From: a virus
Taxonomy: Duplodnaviria; Heunggongvirae; Uroviricota; Caudoviricetes
Virus record (IMG/VR): IMGVR_UViG_2734482547_000016
Length of the DNA stretch: 20,400 nucleotides
Direction: 5' to 3' (one strand)
Of the stretch, positions 4,318 to 11,927 are shown in pieces (within the stretch, counting starts at the first letter, position 1; each line of letters opens with the position of its first letter). Below the pieces are notes generated by a model. It worked only from the letters and a program-made list of their open reading frames with translations. It made no database searches and had not been told where the DNA came from. The translations under genes and the position numbers were made by a program.

Positions 4318-6582
4318 TTATACGGAAACTGGCACACGAGCAGGCAATGGATAGTGAGCCCAGTTATTAGCATTTAAAGCTCTTACGCCATCAGCATAAA
4401 CTTGTGTGTTTCCATCTAATGATTTTAAAGTTACTACAATAGTTACAGGTAAAGGCTCCATTAAGGCCGGTTCATTCGCTCTCAACGTTGTTTTAGCCTG
4501 AAGAGCCCAGTTACCCGAAGTAATTCCTTTATTAAATGCCTTGCGATGAATTTTTACTGGTGACCACTTTCCACCATGCTCAATTTGAGCTCTCTCATAT
4601 CCAGATTGACCGTTTTCTCCTTCCATAGGCACTTTTCCTTTTATAGTATTATTCTCAATTAAGCCAAAACTTAGCTCTACGTTCGCGCGAACATATTCAC
4701 TGCCGGCATTAGGGTTCAGTGGTGGTGCATATGCAGCAGTAATTACAATCTCACCTTTAAATTTTCCATTTTGAATAAGTGCCGATGGTATGGGATAGTT
4801 TTCCTTTCTCCACCTCACCCCAGGAACCAAGAATGTTTGGAAAATCAGAGTAAACCTATCATCACTATCATATAAGGTCTCAATAACTTCATTAGGAATT
4901 CCCGCTCCCAAATAGCGTCTTTCACTTGGCGAGTAATCAGGAGAAGATAATTGAGCGGAATGAATTAATAATGCTTTAATCAATGATGGTGAAACATTAA
5001 AGTCTGAATTAGTGGCTATTCTCTGCCATGTATGCGCAGCTAAACTTGCCACAATTGGAGCAGCAAAACTAGTACCAAAATTAGAGCAAAGCCTATTATC
5101 TGGCCCTACGACCTTTAAACTGCTTGCTCCTACATTCCAAGGTCTATGAACCCCACCGCCAGCATGGATTATATCTGGCTTTGGAGTAAATACAGGCCCA
5201 GGGCCACGACGAGTATATGGTGTCGGTGTTCCAATTTCACTTAAAGCATCATTAGCTTCCATATGAGAAACTGAACCAACTGTTAGTGCTCGGACTGACT
5301 CTCCAGGAGAGGAAATTAAATCAGCACCTCCAAGCGGATCAGGATTTGGCCATGTACGTATAGGTTCATCTACATAATTACCTGCAGCAACTACAAACAA
5401 AATACCAAATTTATCGCTGAGTCGATCTAACTCCATCGCAAAATCACTAAACGTCTGCTCATTACATGGTCCGCCTCCCAAAGACAAATTCCAGACTTTT
5501 ATATCTGGTCTTTTATTTACAGCATCTGCTAGCCTCAGAATTAAATCTGATATATAAGATCCATTTTCATCTAAAGCACAAACATCATGGATTTTAGATT
5601 TTGTATCAGGAATCCATGGATGATTGTCATTTAAAAAATGAGCGCCTGATATCAATGAAGACACCATAGTCCCATGTTCATAACTCGTATCAGGAGGAAT
5701 TACGTATGTTTCCCTACTCACTACCCAAGGAGTAATTGTTGCCGCGATGGGGCTTACCCCAGTGTCAAATACAGCAACAATGGGTAATTCTTCTGATGGT
5801 ACGGGAAAGCTATTTGTTTCAATGCCAACAGAATCACTTACACTAACCGGGAATGCTGAATATTTTGGTTCTGGAATTAACGTTCTTATACCCGGGTAAT
5901 CAATGAGAATGTCTAATATATATCTATCATTTGGGGATAAATCCATTATCCTTAATAAGGGAAGACCACATTTTTGTCTAATCTCATCATATTTAACTCC
6001 GTGTTGTTCTAATATAGAAATAACGTTTTCATAGTTGTTGTAAGTTGCATCTTCACCTGTGTACTCAAATAGTCGTACAAGGATGTTTGATGATTCAAAC
6101 AAACCATCAGTGCCTCCTGGAACCTTCCTATTCTCATCCCAAGGTTCAATGCGCTCAATCGCGCTTAGATTAGCCAAAATCGCTTTAATATTCCGATGTA
6201 AAATGACTGACTCTAATACGTCAAAACAGCCGGCATGAGCAGCAACCAACATTTCATCTATTTTGGCATGACCGGCATTTTGCAATCCAGCATCTTGAGC
6301 AATTTTGTTCGGCCTATGCGTTTTGGCTATTCCCTGGTCTCTTAATTTGAAAACCAAAGTACCCAAGCTTCCAGGGTACTCTGAAAGTTTGGATTCTAAA
6401 TAATGTTTACTGGTTGTTAAATTTCTTACTAGCCCTTGTCTATATTCGGCTGTTACATCAACCAATACCTTTGCCCCACCGCCAGCGTTTACTATTGCAC
6501 CCAAGTCACTACTGGAAAAAGGGATTCTTAACATTGGGTTTGTAACTTTTGCGTTACTAAACTGTGTACCCCTTCTGCTCAT
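4318..6582 (-). CDS. Subtilisin-like S8 serine peptidase, 754 aa, no signal peptide, with long N- and C-terminal extensions
   Basis: Asp-His-Ser order with canonical motifs: VAVFDTG (Asp273), HGTMVSS (His303), AAGN oxyanion Asn (about 402), GTSFAAP (Ser505). N-terminus is hydrophilic. SD AGGAG upstream; start overlaps the upstream ATPase ORF by 26 nt. Confidence 0.85.
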   Translation of the reverse strand: MSRRGTQFSNAKVTNPMLRIPFSSSDLGAIVNAGGGAKVLVDVTAEYRQGLVRNLTTSKHYLESKLSEYPGSLGTLVFKLRDQGIAKTHRPNKIAQDAGLQNAGHAKIDEMLVAAHAGCFDVLESVILHRNIKAILANLSAIERIEPWDENRKVPGGTDGLFESSNILVRLFEYTGEDATYNNYENVISILEQHGVKYDEIRQKCGLPLLRIMDLSPNDRYILDILIDYPGIRTLIPEPKYSAFPVSVSDSVGIETNSFPVPSEELPIVAVFDTGVSPIAATITPWVVSRETYVIPPDTSYEHGTMVSSLISGAHFLNDNHPWIPDTKSKIHDVCALDENGSYISDLILRLADAVNKRPDIKVWNLSLGGGPCNEQTFSDFAMELDRLSDKFGILFVVAAGNYVDEPIRTWPNPDPLGGADLISSPGESVRALTVGSVSHMEANDALSEIGTPTPYTRRGPGPVFTPKPDIIHAGGGVHRPWNVGASSLKVVGPDNRLCSNFGTSFAAPIVASLAAHTWQRIATNSDFNVSPSLIKALLIHSAQLSSPDYSPSERRYLGAGIPNEVIETLYDSDDRFTLIFQTFLVPGVRWRKENYPIPSALIQNGKFKGEIVITAAYAPPLNPNAGSEYVRANVELSFGLIENNTIKGKVPMEGENGQSGYERAQIEHGGKWSPVKIHRKAFNKGITSGNWALQAKTTLRANEPALMEPLPVTIVVTLKSLDGNTQVYADGVRALNANNWAHYPLPARVPVSV

Positions 6583-7711
6583 ATGCTCCTGACTCCTTCA
6601 GAATGTTTGAAATTACTCTTGATGTAAGTTTGTACAAATTAGCAAGAACTCTGATAGAAAATAATTTTTTATCTTTAGAACGTAACCAACGAATTTCATC
6701 TTCGTAAGTGCTTAAATTTACACCTTCCATAAGCGATTGAGCAAGATACAAACGCCTATACAATTTATGGTGATTTATCACACTTGCACCTTCAATAACT
6801 GCATCCCTACGTGCATCCAAGCTCACCTGTTCAATTATTGCTCCGGATAATCCTTCCGATTTTCTTGATAAATCACTTAAATCTAGATCGCAACATATCA
6901 TATTCTTTAAACGATTTTTCCAAATTAACTCTCTCTGATGTATGTCAGGCAGAGGCATTGGAATTCTGAAGCTAAATCGCCTCCAGATTGCAGGATCCAG
7001 AAGTTGCTCATGGTTAGTTGAGGCAATAATTACCGTATCCTCTGATGCCGCATCCATATTCTGCAATAGTGAAATGACAACTCGCTGAAGCTCACCTATA
7101 TCTCTCTCATTACCTCTTGCTCCAGCTAAAGCATCAAATTCGTCTAAAAAAAGCACTGATGGCCTCTGCATTACATAATCGAAAACCTGTCTAAGATTTT
7201 TGCTGGTTTGTCCCAATAAACTACTAATCAAAGTATCGCAACGCACTGTAAGAAGTGGAAAATCTAAGCGGGTAGCGATGTACTTAGATAACATAGTCTT
7301 ACCTGTTCCTGGCTTTCCATACACGAGCATACGACTCGGCAATGCTGCATCAGCTTTAACAAACTCATCATAACGTTGAACATTAGTGATAAACTCTTCA
7401 ACACGGGTACTGATTGCTGCAGGCAGAAAAATCTCTGAACTGTCTAATTTAGGATAACTGACATCAACAGTGTTGAGTCGACTATCAATATCTACCGGTA
7501 ATGAGCCCAGAGATATCCCACCTCCAGCCCTTTGAGCTCCTGCCAACGCCTGGGGAGCTCTAAGCAACCTTTCTCTTATCATTCTGGCTTGCTTGACCTC
7601 CCCTTTTTGTTCGAGCTTATCTGCCAGCAACCCAGCATAATTACTAGCCATCGAAGCATTTGCCTTTGTTGCACCTTCAATGATTTTTAACACTTCTGAT
7701 AAATAATCCAT
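6557..7711 (-). CDS. AAA+ ATPase, 384 aa
   Basis: Walker A GKPGTGKT (aa 132-139), Walker B VLFLDEFD (aa 186-193), downstream IIASTN sensor-1-like motif; no TM segment; translationally coupled to the peptidase gene. Confidence 0.85.
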   Translation of the reverse strand: MDYLSEVLKIIEGATKANASMASNYAGLLADKLEQKGEVKQARMIRERLLRAPQALAGAQRAGGGISLGSLPVDIDSRLNTVDVSYPKLDSSEIFLPAAISTRVEEFITNVQRYDEFVKADAALPSRMLVYGKPGTGKTMLSKYIATRLDFPLLTVRCDTLISSLLGQTSKNLRQVFDYVMQRPSVLFLDEFDALAGARGNERDIGELQRVVISLLQNMDAASEDTVIIASTNHEQLLDPAIWRRFSFRIPMPLPDIHQRELIWKNRLKNMICCDLDLSDLSRKSEGLSGAIIEQVSLDARRDAVIEGASVINHHKLYRRLYLAQSLMEGVNLSTYEDEIRWLRSKDKKLFSIRVLANLYKLTSRVISNILKESGAYEQKGYTV

Positions 7712-9135: not shown

Positions 9136-9882
9136 TTACTTCGCAATTCCTGGCTGGACGACATTCGGACGCCAGCTCTCCCAGTTGAAATTCACCCATC
9201 GCCCGCCGTTCATGGTCATGCGATCCATAATCCGCTCGCCAAGCAATGTTTTCATGGCCTCATAGTTCAGGTTTGTCAGCATCCCCACGCTGCGCATCGA
9301 CGCTGTCCGGCGATCAACAATCTGGTGCAGCACCACCTGCTCGTTTTTCGTCTCGCGCTGAATGCCAATTTCATCAAGAACCAGCAGATCCACTTCGCAC
9401 AGTTCCCGCAAAAATTTTTCGCCTGACTGCCCGTCGTCATAGCTGGCGTGCAGGGCACTCATAACATCAGCCACGGTAACCACAATCACTGTCTGACCGT
9501 CTTTCAGCAGGCGATTCCCGATAGCTGCCGCTAAGTGGTTCTTCCCGGTACCAGGTTTTCCGCTGAACGCAAAATTTGTACACCCGGTCATCAGTTCATC
9601 AGCGATGGATTTCGCCTGACTCAACGCGTATCGCTGCCCTTCGTTCTGCACCTGGTAATTCGAAAACGAGCATTTGCGGTGCAATGGCTGGATGCCAGAG
9701 CGATTCAGAATTTTTTCCACCCGCAACTGACGATTCTGACGGTTGATCTCCTCACAACGTTTCTGGCCTTCGGAAAGTTGCCACTCGCGCCACTCCGCTA
9801 CCGTCTTGAATGGCGCGGTTACATGTGACGGGGCCAGTCTGCGGATACGTTCAAGAACGTCGCCTGTCGCAATATTTTTCAT
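9136..9882 (-). CDS. ydaV: DnaC/IstB-family replicative helicase loader (P-like), 248 aa
   Basis: Walker [16 protein letters not shown] and Walker B LLVLDEIG; same length and position as Rac YdaV (recollection). Confidence 0.75.
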
Positions 9883-9888
9883 GGTCAG

Positions 9889-10677
9889 TTACCCCCTGAA
9901 GCCTGGCGGGATCGCACTATCCGGTAACGAGACGGTGTTAACCTGTCGGAGTAACGTCTCAGGTCGAACACCTTTCGGCGCGAACAAGCCCTGGTATTCG
10001 TTGGCGATGCTGTGTCGAATCACCTGCTCAGGTGAAAAACCCTGCTGGCGGAATTTTTCCAGCTCCCGTATCGCCCCGTTAGCGCCCTGCTCCGTTCGAA
10101 TCGGTTTTCGCAATGCCTGCCTGAACTGAACCCACTCATGCCAGAGTGTTTCCGGCAACCAGTCAGGCAGCTCGATAGCCTCCGGTTCGAATTTTTTAGA
10201 CGCTCGTTTTTGGCGAGGGGGATTTAGGGGGAGATAAGTATTTATATCTTCCTCTTTCTCTTCCTCTGGTAACGCTTTTTGATCCGTTTTTGTAACGCTG
10301 GCAGCGTTACCTTTTCGTTTCAGTTCTCGTATTTTTGTTACTCTCTCGTTTGTAACCGCCCGTTTTTTAGAGCTTTTCCCGTTATGGCGCTCAAAGTTAG
10401 GAAGCGACAACACACCATTAGTTTCGACCAGCCATCCAACCTGAATTAACGCATCAGCAAAACCAGCCATAAAAGTGATGCGATCTATTGCACTTTTTGT
10501 AACGCCGCGAGCGTTACACTCTGCGTTACCGTCTATCATTTGTTGATCCGCCCATGCCCAGAAGCGAATGACTTTCCCTAATGCGGCATCTGGATCAATA
10601 TTCAGAATCTCAGCAAGCCTGAATATTTCCGGCTTATCCGGCGTAATAACCTCGAGCTTTATCCAGTTTGAAGCCAT
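9889..10677 (-). CDS. Replication initiation protein (YdaU-like, O-like role), 262 aa
   Basis: Immediately upstream of the DnaC-like gene (6-nt spacing); SD AGGTGA; contains and is preceded by iteron-like palindromes; central low-complexity basic/acidic linker. Confidence 0.6.
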   Translation of the reverse strand: MASNWIKLEVITPDKPEIFRLAEILNIDPDAALGKVIRFWAWADQQMIDGNAECNARGVTKSAIDRITFMAGFADALIQVGWLVETNGVLSLPNFERHNGKSSKKRAVTNERVTKIRELKRKGNAASVTKTDQKALPEEEKEEDINTYLPLNPPRQKRASKKFEPEAIELPDWLPETLWHEWVQFRQALRKPIRTEQGANGAIRELEKFRQQGFSPEQVIRHSIANEYQGLFAPKGVRPETLLRQVNTVSLPDSAIPPGFRG

Positions 10678-10710
10678 TTGTTTTCACCTTGTAACGCTCG
10701 CAGCGTTACA
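10268..10710. repeat. Iteron-like palindromic repeats, consensus TGTAACGC-N3-5-GCGTTACA (3 full palindromes plus half-sites)
   Basis: Full copies at 10291..10310 (TGTAACGCTGGCAGCGTTAC), 10498..10518 (TGTAACGCCGCGAGCGTTACA) and 10690..10710 (TGTAACGCTCGCAGCGTTACA); half-sites at about 10268, 10351 and 10523. Two lie inside the ydaU-like coding region, one just upstream of its SD. Confidence 0.6.
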
Positions 10711-10754
10711 TTTAACTGATACCGAACAAAACAGTTCGGTACGATTAATTTCAA

Positions 10755-11177
10755 TCAATGCACTACGACAGAATCGCTAGGAGAACCGCCGCCGCTGAAA
10801 TGTGCTTTACGGTAAACGGCCTGGACTGCATCATCATGCGCATCAATTGCCGTACTCAGTGCATCCTGTGCCGCCAGTAATGCACGGCGTTCCAGGGTAT
10901 CGAAGATGCAGAGTCGGTGACGCAGCTCGCGAGGAAGAATTGCCAGAACCGCAGGGATCAGTTTCTGAATTTTTTCCCTTTGCGCATTCGTTTCACCTTT
11001 CAACCAACGATGATAGATATTCTGCTGATTGTTCCAGTCCTTGCCTGGTACCAGGGGCAATTCGCCGCCCCCCTGGCGCAGATATTCTTCAGTAATTGCG
11101 TTAGCGACCCACGCCTGCCCTTTTTCGGCTGCCAGGGCTAACAACACTGATTCGATGTGCTCATGCTTGATTTTCAT
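10755..11177 (-). CDS. ydaT: YdaT-like protein (CII-analogue regulator of Rac-type prophages), 140 aa
   Basis: MKIKHEHIESVLLALAAEKG... resembles Rac YdaT (recollection); start overlaps the stop of the Cro-like gene (ATGA). Confidence 0.6.
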   Translation of the reverse strand: MKIKHEHIESVLLALAAEKGQAWVANAITEEYLRQGGGELPLVPGKDWNNQQNIYHRWLKGETNAQREKIQKLIPAVLAILPRELRHRLCIFDTLERRALLAAQDALSTAIDAHDDAVQAVYRKAHFSGGGSPSDSVVVH

Positions 11178-11428
11178 GAATCAACTCCCATCAGCTTTTT
11201 CGTAGTAGTTTTATTTCTGCCAATAGTTAAAATTGCATCGGCAGAAAATAATCCGTTTGATGCATGAGCGATTTTTTCAGCGTAATTTGTTTCGCCGGTA
11301 TATTCTGTGCGAGGCAATTTTCCGTTATCCATCCATTTGTAGATTGCTCTTTGGCTGACACCACAAACGTCGGCCACAACAGAAACGCGAACAGTTTTGA
11401 TTACATCTTCAAGTGTTTTCTGGTTCAT
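11174..11428 (-). CDS. Cro-like HTH regulator (YdaS-like), about 84 aa
   Basis: HTH-like segment VSVVADVCGVSQRAIYKWMDNGKLP; SD GAGGA before the ATG at 11428; divergent from the repressor gene. The ORF-track start at 11500 would overlap the repressor promoter, so the internal start is preferred. Confidence 0.6.
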   Translation of the reverse strand: MNQKTLEDVIKTVRVSVVADVCGVSQRAIYKWMDNGKLPRTEYTGETNYAEKIAHASNGLFSADAILTIGRNKTTTKKLMGVDS

Positions 11429-11507
11429 ATCATCCTCACAATGTGAACTTTGAGTACATGCTATAACAGAACTGACAGTACATTCAAGAGCGAATATCAT
11501 TGAACTT
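11429..11507. promoter_or_regulatory. OR-like divergent promoter/operator region between the repressor and the Cro-like gene
   Basis: 79-bp intergenic region between divergent regulators; two direct AGTACAT motifs (11453..11459, 11477..11483). Confidence 0.5.
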
Positions 11508-11927
11508 ATGGTTCATGAAGATAAAGCGCGTAAAGAGTTCGCCAGTAGGCTTGCGCTAGCCTGTGAAAACGCTGGTTATGAACAACATGGAAGGCAGGCA
11601 GAAATTGCCCGTCGAATGAAATTAACACCAAAAGCGGTTAGCAAATGGTTTAATGGTGAAACAATTCCTCGCCGAGAGAAATTAAGGGAATTAGCAACAC
11701 TCATTGGAACAACACCAACCTATCTTTTGGGAGAGGATACAGAAGAAAGTGGACAGATACGTTTCTATCAGGAGTTAAATCCAAGACAAAAAATCATCAT
11801 TGACCTTCTGGACGAGCTCCCTGACAGTGAGACAGATGAACTTTTAAAAACTCTTGAGGAGAAAAAACAGAAGTACAATGCAATTTACGAAGAGTTAGCA
11901 CGAAAGAAAAAACAAAAAGCCTCTTAA
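11508..11927 (+). CDS. Prophage repressor, XRE-family HTH (RacR-like), 139 aa
   Basis: HTH segment QAEIARRMKLTPKAVSKWFNGETIPRREKLRELATLIG; no S24 peptidase domain; C-terminal charged coiled-coil-like tail; divergent from the Cro-like gene. Confidence 0.7.
   Translation: MVHEDKARKEFASRLALACENAGYEQHGRQAEIARRMKLTPKAVSKWFNGETIPRREKLRELATLIGTTPTYLLGEDTEESGQIRFYQELNPRQKIIIDLLDELPDSETDELLKTLEEKKQKYNAIYEELARKKKQKAS

Follow-up and report, generated by a model that had tools for sequence, protein, structure and literature searches.

Near-identical palindromes are clustered in and just upstream of a ydaU-like gene in a stretch of tailed-phage DNA of 20,400 nucleotides (nt) (Caudoviricetes; IMG/VR record IMGVR_UViG_2734482547_000016), and the question raised by this locus is which protein recognises them and whether they mark an origin of replication. 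The whole stretch is termed the window here, and it represents a Rac-type prophage at the ttcA site. The gene in question (9889..10677, minus strand), termed the initiator gene, encodes a protein of 262 amino acids with an N-terminal domain (N-domain) that is predicted to fold as a winged helix (confident core, residues 10-95), a linker at about residues 100-150 and a DnaT-like C-terminal domain. Directly downstream on the same strand lies ydaV (9136..9882), a gene for a DnaC/IstB-like AAA+ helicase loader. The reading favoured here, to which a probability of about three in four is given from sequence comparison, is that the palindromes and half-sites are iterons bound by the initiator, and that the cluster within the linker-coding region forms, with an adjoining polypurine tract, the core of a lambda-style origin. 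An origin within an initiator gene is what a specialist would expect; the interest is in a precise, testable map and a design that extends across a whole family.

The motif is real and non-random. The palindrome has the form TGTAACGC-N5-GCGTTACA, and exactly three matches to the pattern TGTAACGCNNNNNGCGTTACA, allowing at most two mismatches, were found in the window, while shuffled versions of the window gave a mean of 0.01 and none of 100 shuffles reached three. An earlier, sequence-only reading of this DNA had placed the palindromes and several half-sites in and near the ydaU-like gene, and this was borne out. The copies at 10498-10518 and 10690-10710 are perfect and the copy at 10291-10311 carries one mismatch (TGTAACGCTGGCAGCGTTACC); the start-to-start distances are 207 and 192 nt. 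Each inverted pair consists of GTAACGC, a 5-nt spacer and GCGTTAC, so that the half-site starts lie 12 nt apart. The GTAACGC half-site is present 13 times in the window against 1.8 expected, and eight of these copies fall within 10269-10709, including single ones at 10269-10275 and 10523-10529. The five copies outside the initiator region (6551, 7782, 7824, 8615 and 14694), none of which is part of a palindrome, may be chance occurrences or weak secondary sites.

Three groups of sites can be laid out along the gene. The linker cluster (10269..10311) comprises the palindrome at 10291-10311 and the half-site at 10269-10275, at gene offsets +368, +380 and +403, and on its 5' side are two degenerate GTTAC/GTAAC cores (10337-10341 and 10352-10356, together spanning 10337..10356) that are possible weak sites. 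The cluster within the N-domain coding region (10498..10529) comprises the palindrome at 10498-10518 and the half-site at 10523-10529, at offsets +149, +161 and +173. The upstream palindrome, TGTAACGC-TCGCA-GCGTTACA (10690..10710), occupies -32 to -12 relative to the initiator start codon and lies directly 5' of the ribosome-binding site, its end being 2 nt upstream of AAGGTGA. As had been read from the sequence, the two internal palindromes encode xNAxxVT peptides in one reading frame, CNARGVT (codons 54-60) and GNAASVT (codons 123-129). The 10498-10529 cluster encodes a surface loop, DGNAECNARGVT, of which residues 53-56 have a low predicted local distance difference test (pLDDT) value. Only about half of the window-type sequences carry the +149 half-site. 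A 12-nt insertion adds one half-site and four residues (ECNA) to a surface loop of low model confidence. Within the window lineage, all three palindromes are retained in 60 of 64 distinct sequences, and across the 64 unique window-type sequences the palindrome arms are invariant and the 5-nt spacers are variable.

The identity of the cognate protein was addressed using natural recombinants. In the window, window-type immunity genes are found together with this N-domain and three palindromes. Strain UPEC85 combines the K-12 RacR/YdaS immunity genes with the window-type N-domain, and strain CFS3292 combines a third immunity type with it; both carry three palindromes. Strain GF47, conversely, has window-type immunity genes and a DUF1376 YdaU, K-12 has the RacR/YdaS genes and a DUF1376 YdaU, and neither carries any palindrome. 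All five loci have conserved ydaT and ydaV genes. A search for the palindrome in related prophages, called for beforehand, thus found it present with the same N-domain and absent where the N-domain is replaced. Nucleotide alignment (blastn) with K-12 and GF47 showed that homology stops at 10143 and restarts at 10757. The intervening 10144..10756 is therefore an exchangeable specificity module that is substituted as a unit in Rac prophages of the K-12 type; it takes in the N-domain coding part, the linker, the 77-nt spacer upstream and every one of the three site clusters. A second swap was seen between the Ralstonia phages QkW1 and RPZH3, which are homologous through gene offset +24 and again from +400. 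In the differing stretch, +25 to +399, the N-domain and both clusters change together, from GTAACGC to GTCCGC type, and the recombination junction coincides with the polypurine tract.

These recombinants bear directly on the alternative that the sites serve some other DNA-binding protein, be it a CI-like repressor, a Cro/YdaS-like protein, the CII-like YdaT or a host factor. The region does lie in an early operon beside three regulator genes, and a weak YdaT-like match is present at 10741-10758. The palindromes persist, however, alongside three repressor/Cro pairs and vanish when the same pair meets a different initiator. YdaT is conserved in loci without palindromes, and its known site, TTGATT-N6-AATCAA, is different (PMC9986795), while the likely operators of the repressor are a different repeat at 11444-11517. 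In addition, the motif is kept in Xanthomonas, Pseudomonas and Ralstonia phages with unrelated neighbouring genes, and no DnaA-box or IHF consensus was found within 10101-10800. Recognition by such a protein is judged very unlikely, and sites for the repressor, Cro or YdaT were rejected on the basis of the recombinants. Because the palindromes follow the N-domain across immunity types, the repressor, Cro, YdaT and YdaV are excluded and the initiator N-domain remains as the cognate protein. That the sites function at the level of the DNA and co-evolve with the N-domain is close to certain.

The same sites are found in distant phages. A tblastn search with the N-domain returned 59 phage records, and an exhaustive phmmer search placed the initiator in a family of 6,610 clusters at 50% identity, for which there is no Pfam model. 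N-domain identity to the window is 65% in TL-2011b and ZX5, 49% in Xanthomonas CP2, 47% in Pseudomonas PAN70 and 41% in Ralstonia QkW1. In these five phages, and also in CBW1004C-Prop1 and Xanthomonas SAC, GTAACGC is present at the same gene offsets, although the C-terminal domains and flanking genes differ. The inverted pair at +149/+161 is found at equal offset in TL-2011b, CP2, PAN70 and the L096 and L168 clusters. The linker array of the relatives, at about +345 to +381, usually holds four half-sites, two forward and then two reverse, with 11-12-nt spacing. The upstream palindrome, on the other hand, is missing in TL-2011b, and CP2 and PAN70 have only single half-sites upstream; as a full site it is specific to the window lineage.

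It could be argued that the repeats are a by-product of the xNAxxVT peptide motif, or a relic of recombination, with no DNA-binding role, since one reading frame and one peptide motif are common to both internal palindromes and the linker is a recombination junction. Synonymous-codon shuffling was applied to six genes, which contain 6, 5, 3, 3, 4 and 5 exact half-sites against shuffled means of 1.9, 0.5, 0.3, 0.5, 0.6 and 1.6 (P <= 0.0005 for each), and more sites are present than the protein sequence requires; since GTAACGC had been fixed as the motif on window sequence before it was sought elsewhere, this test and the two comparisons that follow are unbiased. Synonymous positions are frozen: in 75 distinct Pseudomonas-type sequences, third codon positions are 98% conserved inside the sites and 73% outside (P = 1.4e-6). 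Two reading frames are used for one and the same 7-mer, which gives SVT in one and ALP in the other, the latter with the leucine codon TTA, in genes of 59-62% G+C. Moreover, one perfect copy is in the non-coding upstream spacer, and the internal-site peptide falls in a low-confidence loop. The codon-shuffle excess, the frozen third positions and the two-frame reading together indicate selection on the DNA and not on the peptide. The by-product explanation, rejected on the codon tests and the non-coding copy, has a next to negligible likelihood.

A further alternative is that the palindromes function in the early transcript, folding into RNA hairpins with a role in stability, processing or translational control. 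Each palindrome could pair into a stem of 8 bp, the RNA of the spacer is more stably folded than its shuffles (z = -3.1), and loop or spacer positions vary where arms do not. It is the sequence of the arms that is conserved, however, and not merely their pairing, with no compensatory changes seen; the Pseudomonas-type arm mismatch GCGTTAG is invariant and uncompensated, and single unpaired half-sites and arrays of two forward and two reverse half-sites are also conserved. An RNA role is considered highly improbable.

Binding by the initiator N-domain is also consistent with the half-sites found in more distant subfamilies, in which other motifs occupy the same layout. In epsilon15, Klebsiella BUCT711, Pseudomonas phiPSA1 and Ralstonia RPZH3 the half-site is GTCCGC(A), found four times in the linker and a further four times at +55 to +101. 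GTAGAC is the half-site of Ralstonia Raharianne and GTCACA, a weaker case, that of Vibrio 1.211, each in both the linker and the N-domain coding region. Each distant subfamily shows two forward and then two reverse half-sites in the linker, plus a cluster in the N-domain coding region. Codon-shuffle tests were significant for these motifs, and cross-motif controls were zero. If the N-domain and its sites set specificity together, replication incompatibility or specificity types would be predictable directly from the half-site (GTAACGC, GTCCGC, GTAGAC and others). The likeness to the iterons of the lambda origin inside gene O, pointed out in the sequence-only reading, gained support from the co-swap with the N-domain, the synonymous conservation and the replacement of half-sites within the same layout.

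Directly after the last half-site lies an A/T-rich tract, purine-rich on the sense strand of the gene (10233..10268, minus strand). It comprises 36 nt, is 67% A+T and is 75% pyrimidine on the plus strand, within a region (10220-10380) of low G+C content and strong A/T skew. The tract is bounded by a C-tract element, GGGGGATTTAGGGGG (10217..10231; C5-TAAAT-C5 on the sense strand), that is common to K-12 ydaU and distant relatives. In the relatives, a pure purine run of 23-29 nt, AGAGAAGAGAAGAGAAGAGAAGA, comes directly after the linker array in every subfamily and is followed by a C5-7-N4-5-C5-7 element. Phages from five host genera (Xanthomonas, Salmonella, Ralstonia, Pseudomonas and Klebsiella) have the run in exactly the same nucleotide sequence, and all of its arginine codons are AGA even in genes of 57-65% G+C. 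The run is also a mirror repeat, located at 1900 in locus L253 and 1873 in locus L256 and also found in L008, L010, L254 and L258-L260, at offsets +373 to +412. The tract at 10233-10268 is proposed, from its composition and position, to be the DNA-unwinding element.

Binding sites in the middle of an initiator gene, an easily opened tract and a loader gene downstream make up a lambda-type arrangement, and it is on this basis that the locus is read as an origin. The proposal that this region is a candidate replication origin thus receives comparative support, with one amendment: the likely core is the linker cluster with the A/T tract, and not the three palindromes equally. We infer the following sequence of events. 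Dimers of the initiator, through their winged helices, would bind inverted pairs of half-sites. The linker cluster (10269-10311) and the tract (10233-10268) would form the core of a bidirectional prophage origin, where occupation of the linker array by the initiator would stress the polypurine tract and lead to its opening. The DnaT-like C-terminal domain could then hold the single-stranded DNA, recruit the DnaC-like YdaV loader with host DnaB, or both. The conserved cluster at 10498-10529 would serve as an auxiliary site, and might extend the complex or, across a distance of about 200 bp, form a loop with the linker array. The upstream palindrome (10690-10710) might be an extra initiator site that acts as a roadblock or operator and damps read-through into the initiator gene.

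The sequence-only reading had the upstream palindrome overlapping a likely promoter. This did not hold, as a consensus scan of the minus strand of the 77-nt ydaT-initiator spacer found no sigma-70-like promoter. With no detectable promoter over the upstream palindrome, confidence in an operator or roadblock role is low, and autoregulation by this copy is considered possible at distinctly less than even odds. A stronger form of the same idea is that all of the initiator-bound sites are only autoregulatory operators or roadblocks, and that the origin is elsewhere in the prophage. In its favour, one palindrome is just 5' of the ribosome-binding site in a non-coding spacer, the sites are spread over 440 bp and not packed, and many initiators autoregulate. 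Against this, nothing promoter-like covers the upstream palindrome, which is the least conserved of the three clusters and missing in TL-2011b. The best-conserved arrays lie deep in the gene, in the linker, where they have no obvious operator use and are always followed by the polypurine A/T tract; no further copy of the palindrome is present in the 20.4-kb window. An operator over a promoter was dropped as the main explanation because of the missing minus-strand promoter, and an operator-only role for the sites is regarded as improbable.

Several observations nevertheless weigh against the origin reading. The three palindromes are about 200 bp apart and not tightly tandem as in lambda, and the linker array of the window is less regular than those of its relatives, with three clear half-sites at 12- and 23-nt spacing and not four. 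At 36 bp and 67% A+T the A/T tract is short, and part of its conservation could stem from the acidic/basic peptide that it encodes. The half-sites other than GTAACGC were selected and tested on one and the same data set. Finally, excised Rac DNA of K-12 is reportedly replication-defective (PMC11879457), and elements of this design are thus not all active.

How does this arrangement compare with known systems? In the lambda origin the sites are internally palindromic, the N-terminal domain and the sites set specificity and are exchanged together, and the C-terminal domain provides the link to the helicase loader, whose gene comes next. Palindromic sites, an exchangeable N-domain/site specificity and a loader gene next to the initiator gene are shared with the window. 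In lambda-type origins, the middle of gene O contains the iterons together with an AT-rich tract, and O gains residues where iterons are added (PMC7466680). The origins of lambda and Stx phages have in common with the window the location in the middle of the initiator gene and an A/T-rich tract 3' of the sites in the direction of transcription; in both, extra sites add residues to the protein, in the window a 12-nt insertion of four amino acids. The differences are also clear. Lambda O has no sequence homology with the N-domain of the window, which has no Pfam match of any kind, and the window has half-sites of 7-8 bp in nested inverted sets with ~12-nt phasing where lambda has four tandem 19-bp iterons. 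The window also differs in having a second conserved cluster in the N-domain coding region, a polypurine run as the candidate for unwinding, a DnaT-like C-terminal domain and a loader that is DnaC-like and not lambda P.

The closest relative with a known origin is the Rac prophage of K-12, of which oriJ is the functionally known origin as it is cited in PMC11014345 and PMC3945230. K-12 Rac resembles the window in the ttcA site, ydaT, ydaV and the C-terminal domain of the initiator, but its N-domain is DUF1376 and it has no TGTAACGC sites, while the window has an unrelated, predicted winged-helix N-domain. In K-12 ydaU (positions 1985-2304 of locus L001), repeats of its own, TTGAACATCTG / TGTTCAAAC, were observed in the N-domain coding part, and four lie in the linker, after which come an A-rich stretch containing two GATC sites and then C7-TAAAT-C7. 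The plan is like that of the window: TGTTCAA(AC) is found at +148/+232 and four times in the linker, ahead of the A-rich tract and the C7-TAAAT-C7 element. This K-12 array is a likely candidate for the fine structure of oriJ. No description of the sites in the window was found in the literature searched, a scope outside which the primary papers on oriJ lie.

The replisome-organiser initiator G38P of the Bacillus phage SPP1 has its origin, oriL, in its own gene, with repeats beside an A/T-rich region and the loader gene next. It is like the window initiator, as proposed here, in having a small N-terminal DNA-binding domain that recognises repeats in its own coding sequence; there is no detectable sequence relationship, and the repeats and their arrangement differ. 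The Rep proteins of iteron plasmids (RepE, pi) are winged-helix initiators that act on short repeats beside an unwinding element, and inverted copies of the repeats are often autoregulatory. Plasmid-type origins, however, have head-to-tail repeats outside the rep gene, in contrast to the inverted pairs and nested inverted sets inside the gene in the window. The C-terminal domain of E. coli DnaT aligns with the last ~93 amino acids of the window initiator and the tail, VNTVSxPDSxIPPGFRG, is nearly identical. DnaT, however, has no sequence-specific origin-binding domain and acts in PriA-dependent replication restart, not at an origin.

The initiator itself was analysed by several searches. The label 'ydaU-like' holds for its C-terminal part, as the last 124 amino acids are 81% identical to K-12 YdaU (BLASTP), and fails for the N-terminal ~140 amino acids, which are unrelated to DUF1376: BLASTP detected no similarity between the first ~138 residues and K-12 YdaU, and PF07120 (DUF1376) matches K-12 YdaU at 2.7e-26 and not the window initiator. 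The 'YdaU' annotation consequently merges proteins with unrelated DNA-binding domains. Searching Pfam with either half of the initiator gave no family at E <= 10, including the phage O replication protein domain, and a profile built from the N-domain alignment gave no match among PDB sequences. The full length (residues 1-262) matched PHROG 2509, 'replication initiation protein', at E = 4.7e-88 (profile positions 1-277). The 'replication initiation O-like' family phrog_678 matched only the linker and C-terminal part (residues 76-236), and a PHROG 'replisome organizer' match was weak (E = 0.0066). DnaT C-domain structures matched the C-terminal fragment (2ru8_A, E = 4.9e-5; 9zbt_D, E = 1.8e-4; fragment residues 31-123). 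Pfam DnaT_DNA_bind does not match the window initiator and is recorded for relatives, and the NCBIfam match is to the DnaT tail only. The C-terminal tail VNTVSLPDSAIPPGFRG (window 9889-9945, the last ~19 codons) was seen to be almost identical to the host DnaT tail VNTVSEPDSQIPPGFRG; this near-identity suggests a shared partner, for which the initiator and host DnaT would compete. The presumed partner of the C-terminal domain is YdaV, which matches PF01695 (9.2e-20) and the Bac_DnaA ATPase (8.8e-9), and whose gene is named ydaV in near-identical genomes.

A wider interpretation, offered tentatively and on balance unlikely, is that the winged helix and its own iterons constitute a swappable cassette, joined at the conserved AGAGAAGAGAAGAGAAGAGAAGA tract and C-tract element to interchangeable, often DnaT-like, helicase-recruiting domains, with the tract serving both as an unwinding or single-strand-binding element and as a recombination junction. 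If true, this would reveal how origins are built in a very large and as yet uncharacterised phage initiator family, origin firing would borrow the DnaT step of the restart primosome, and homologous recombination at the tract would let phages exchange replication specificity. The origin reading on its own does not overturn the lambda paradigm and would extend it to an unstudied initiator family. It gives a precise, testable origin location for one common type of Rac-like prophage and suggests how a DnaT-like domain might serve helicase loading at an origin. By extension, the likely origin would also be located in the epsilon15-like, TL-2011b-like, Xanthomonas, Pseudomonas and Ralstonia phages that share the N-domain. 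At least 80% of a 1.8-kb stretch (window 9800-11600) is held by 449 of 5,426 complete E. coli genomes. Complete phage genomes also carry the exact initiator module, that of phage vB_EcoS-673R7 being identical.

Upstream of the initiator gene are the CII-like ydaT, a Cro-like gene and a divergent repressor gene, and the near-identical stretch in strain cS108a contains intR, xisR, recET, kilR, sieB, the repressor/Cro pair, ydaT, the initiator gene and ydaV. A perfect match to the YdaT operator TTGATT-N6-AATCAA (TTGATTTTCATGAATCAA) is present at 11167-11184, spanning the ydaT start codon and the end of the Cro-like gene (PMC9986795), and a copy with two mismatches lies at 10741-10758, just after the ydaT stop codon. 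Between ydaT and the upstream palindrome, at 10720-10741, is an inverted repeat, TACCGAAC-N6-GTTCGGTA. Its left arm shows the variants A>G, A>G and C>U in related sequences, which by eye keep G-U wobble pairing only in the sense-strand RNA and hint at an mRNA hairpin; the repeat is followed by no U-tract on the sense strand. The divergent repressor/Cro spacer (11444-11517) carries the repeats GAACTTTGAGTACAT, GAACTGACAGTACAT and TGAACTTATGGTTCATG (families D5/D6), which are probably the immunity operators, and the only promoter-like match in the promoter scan was at 11472-11500 on the plus strand. At 4318-7711 (minus strand), two overlapping genes match IetA (AAA+ ATPase, 3.1e-142) and IetS (subtilase-like, 7e-301), an anti-phage/anti-plasmid defence pair, and the near-identical prophage L002 has a Sll1717-family P-loop ATPase instead at about this position.

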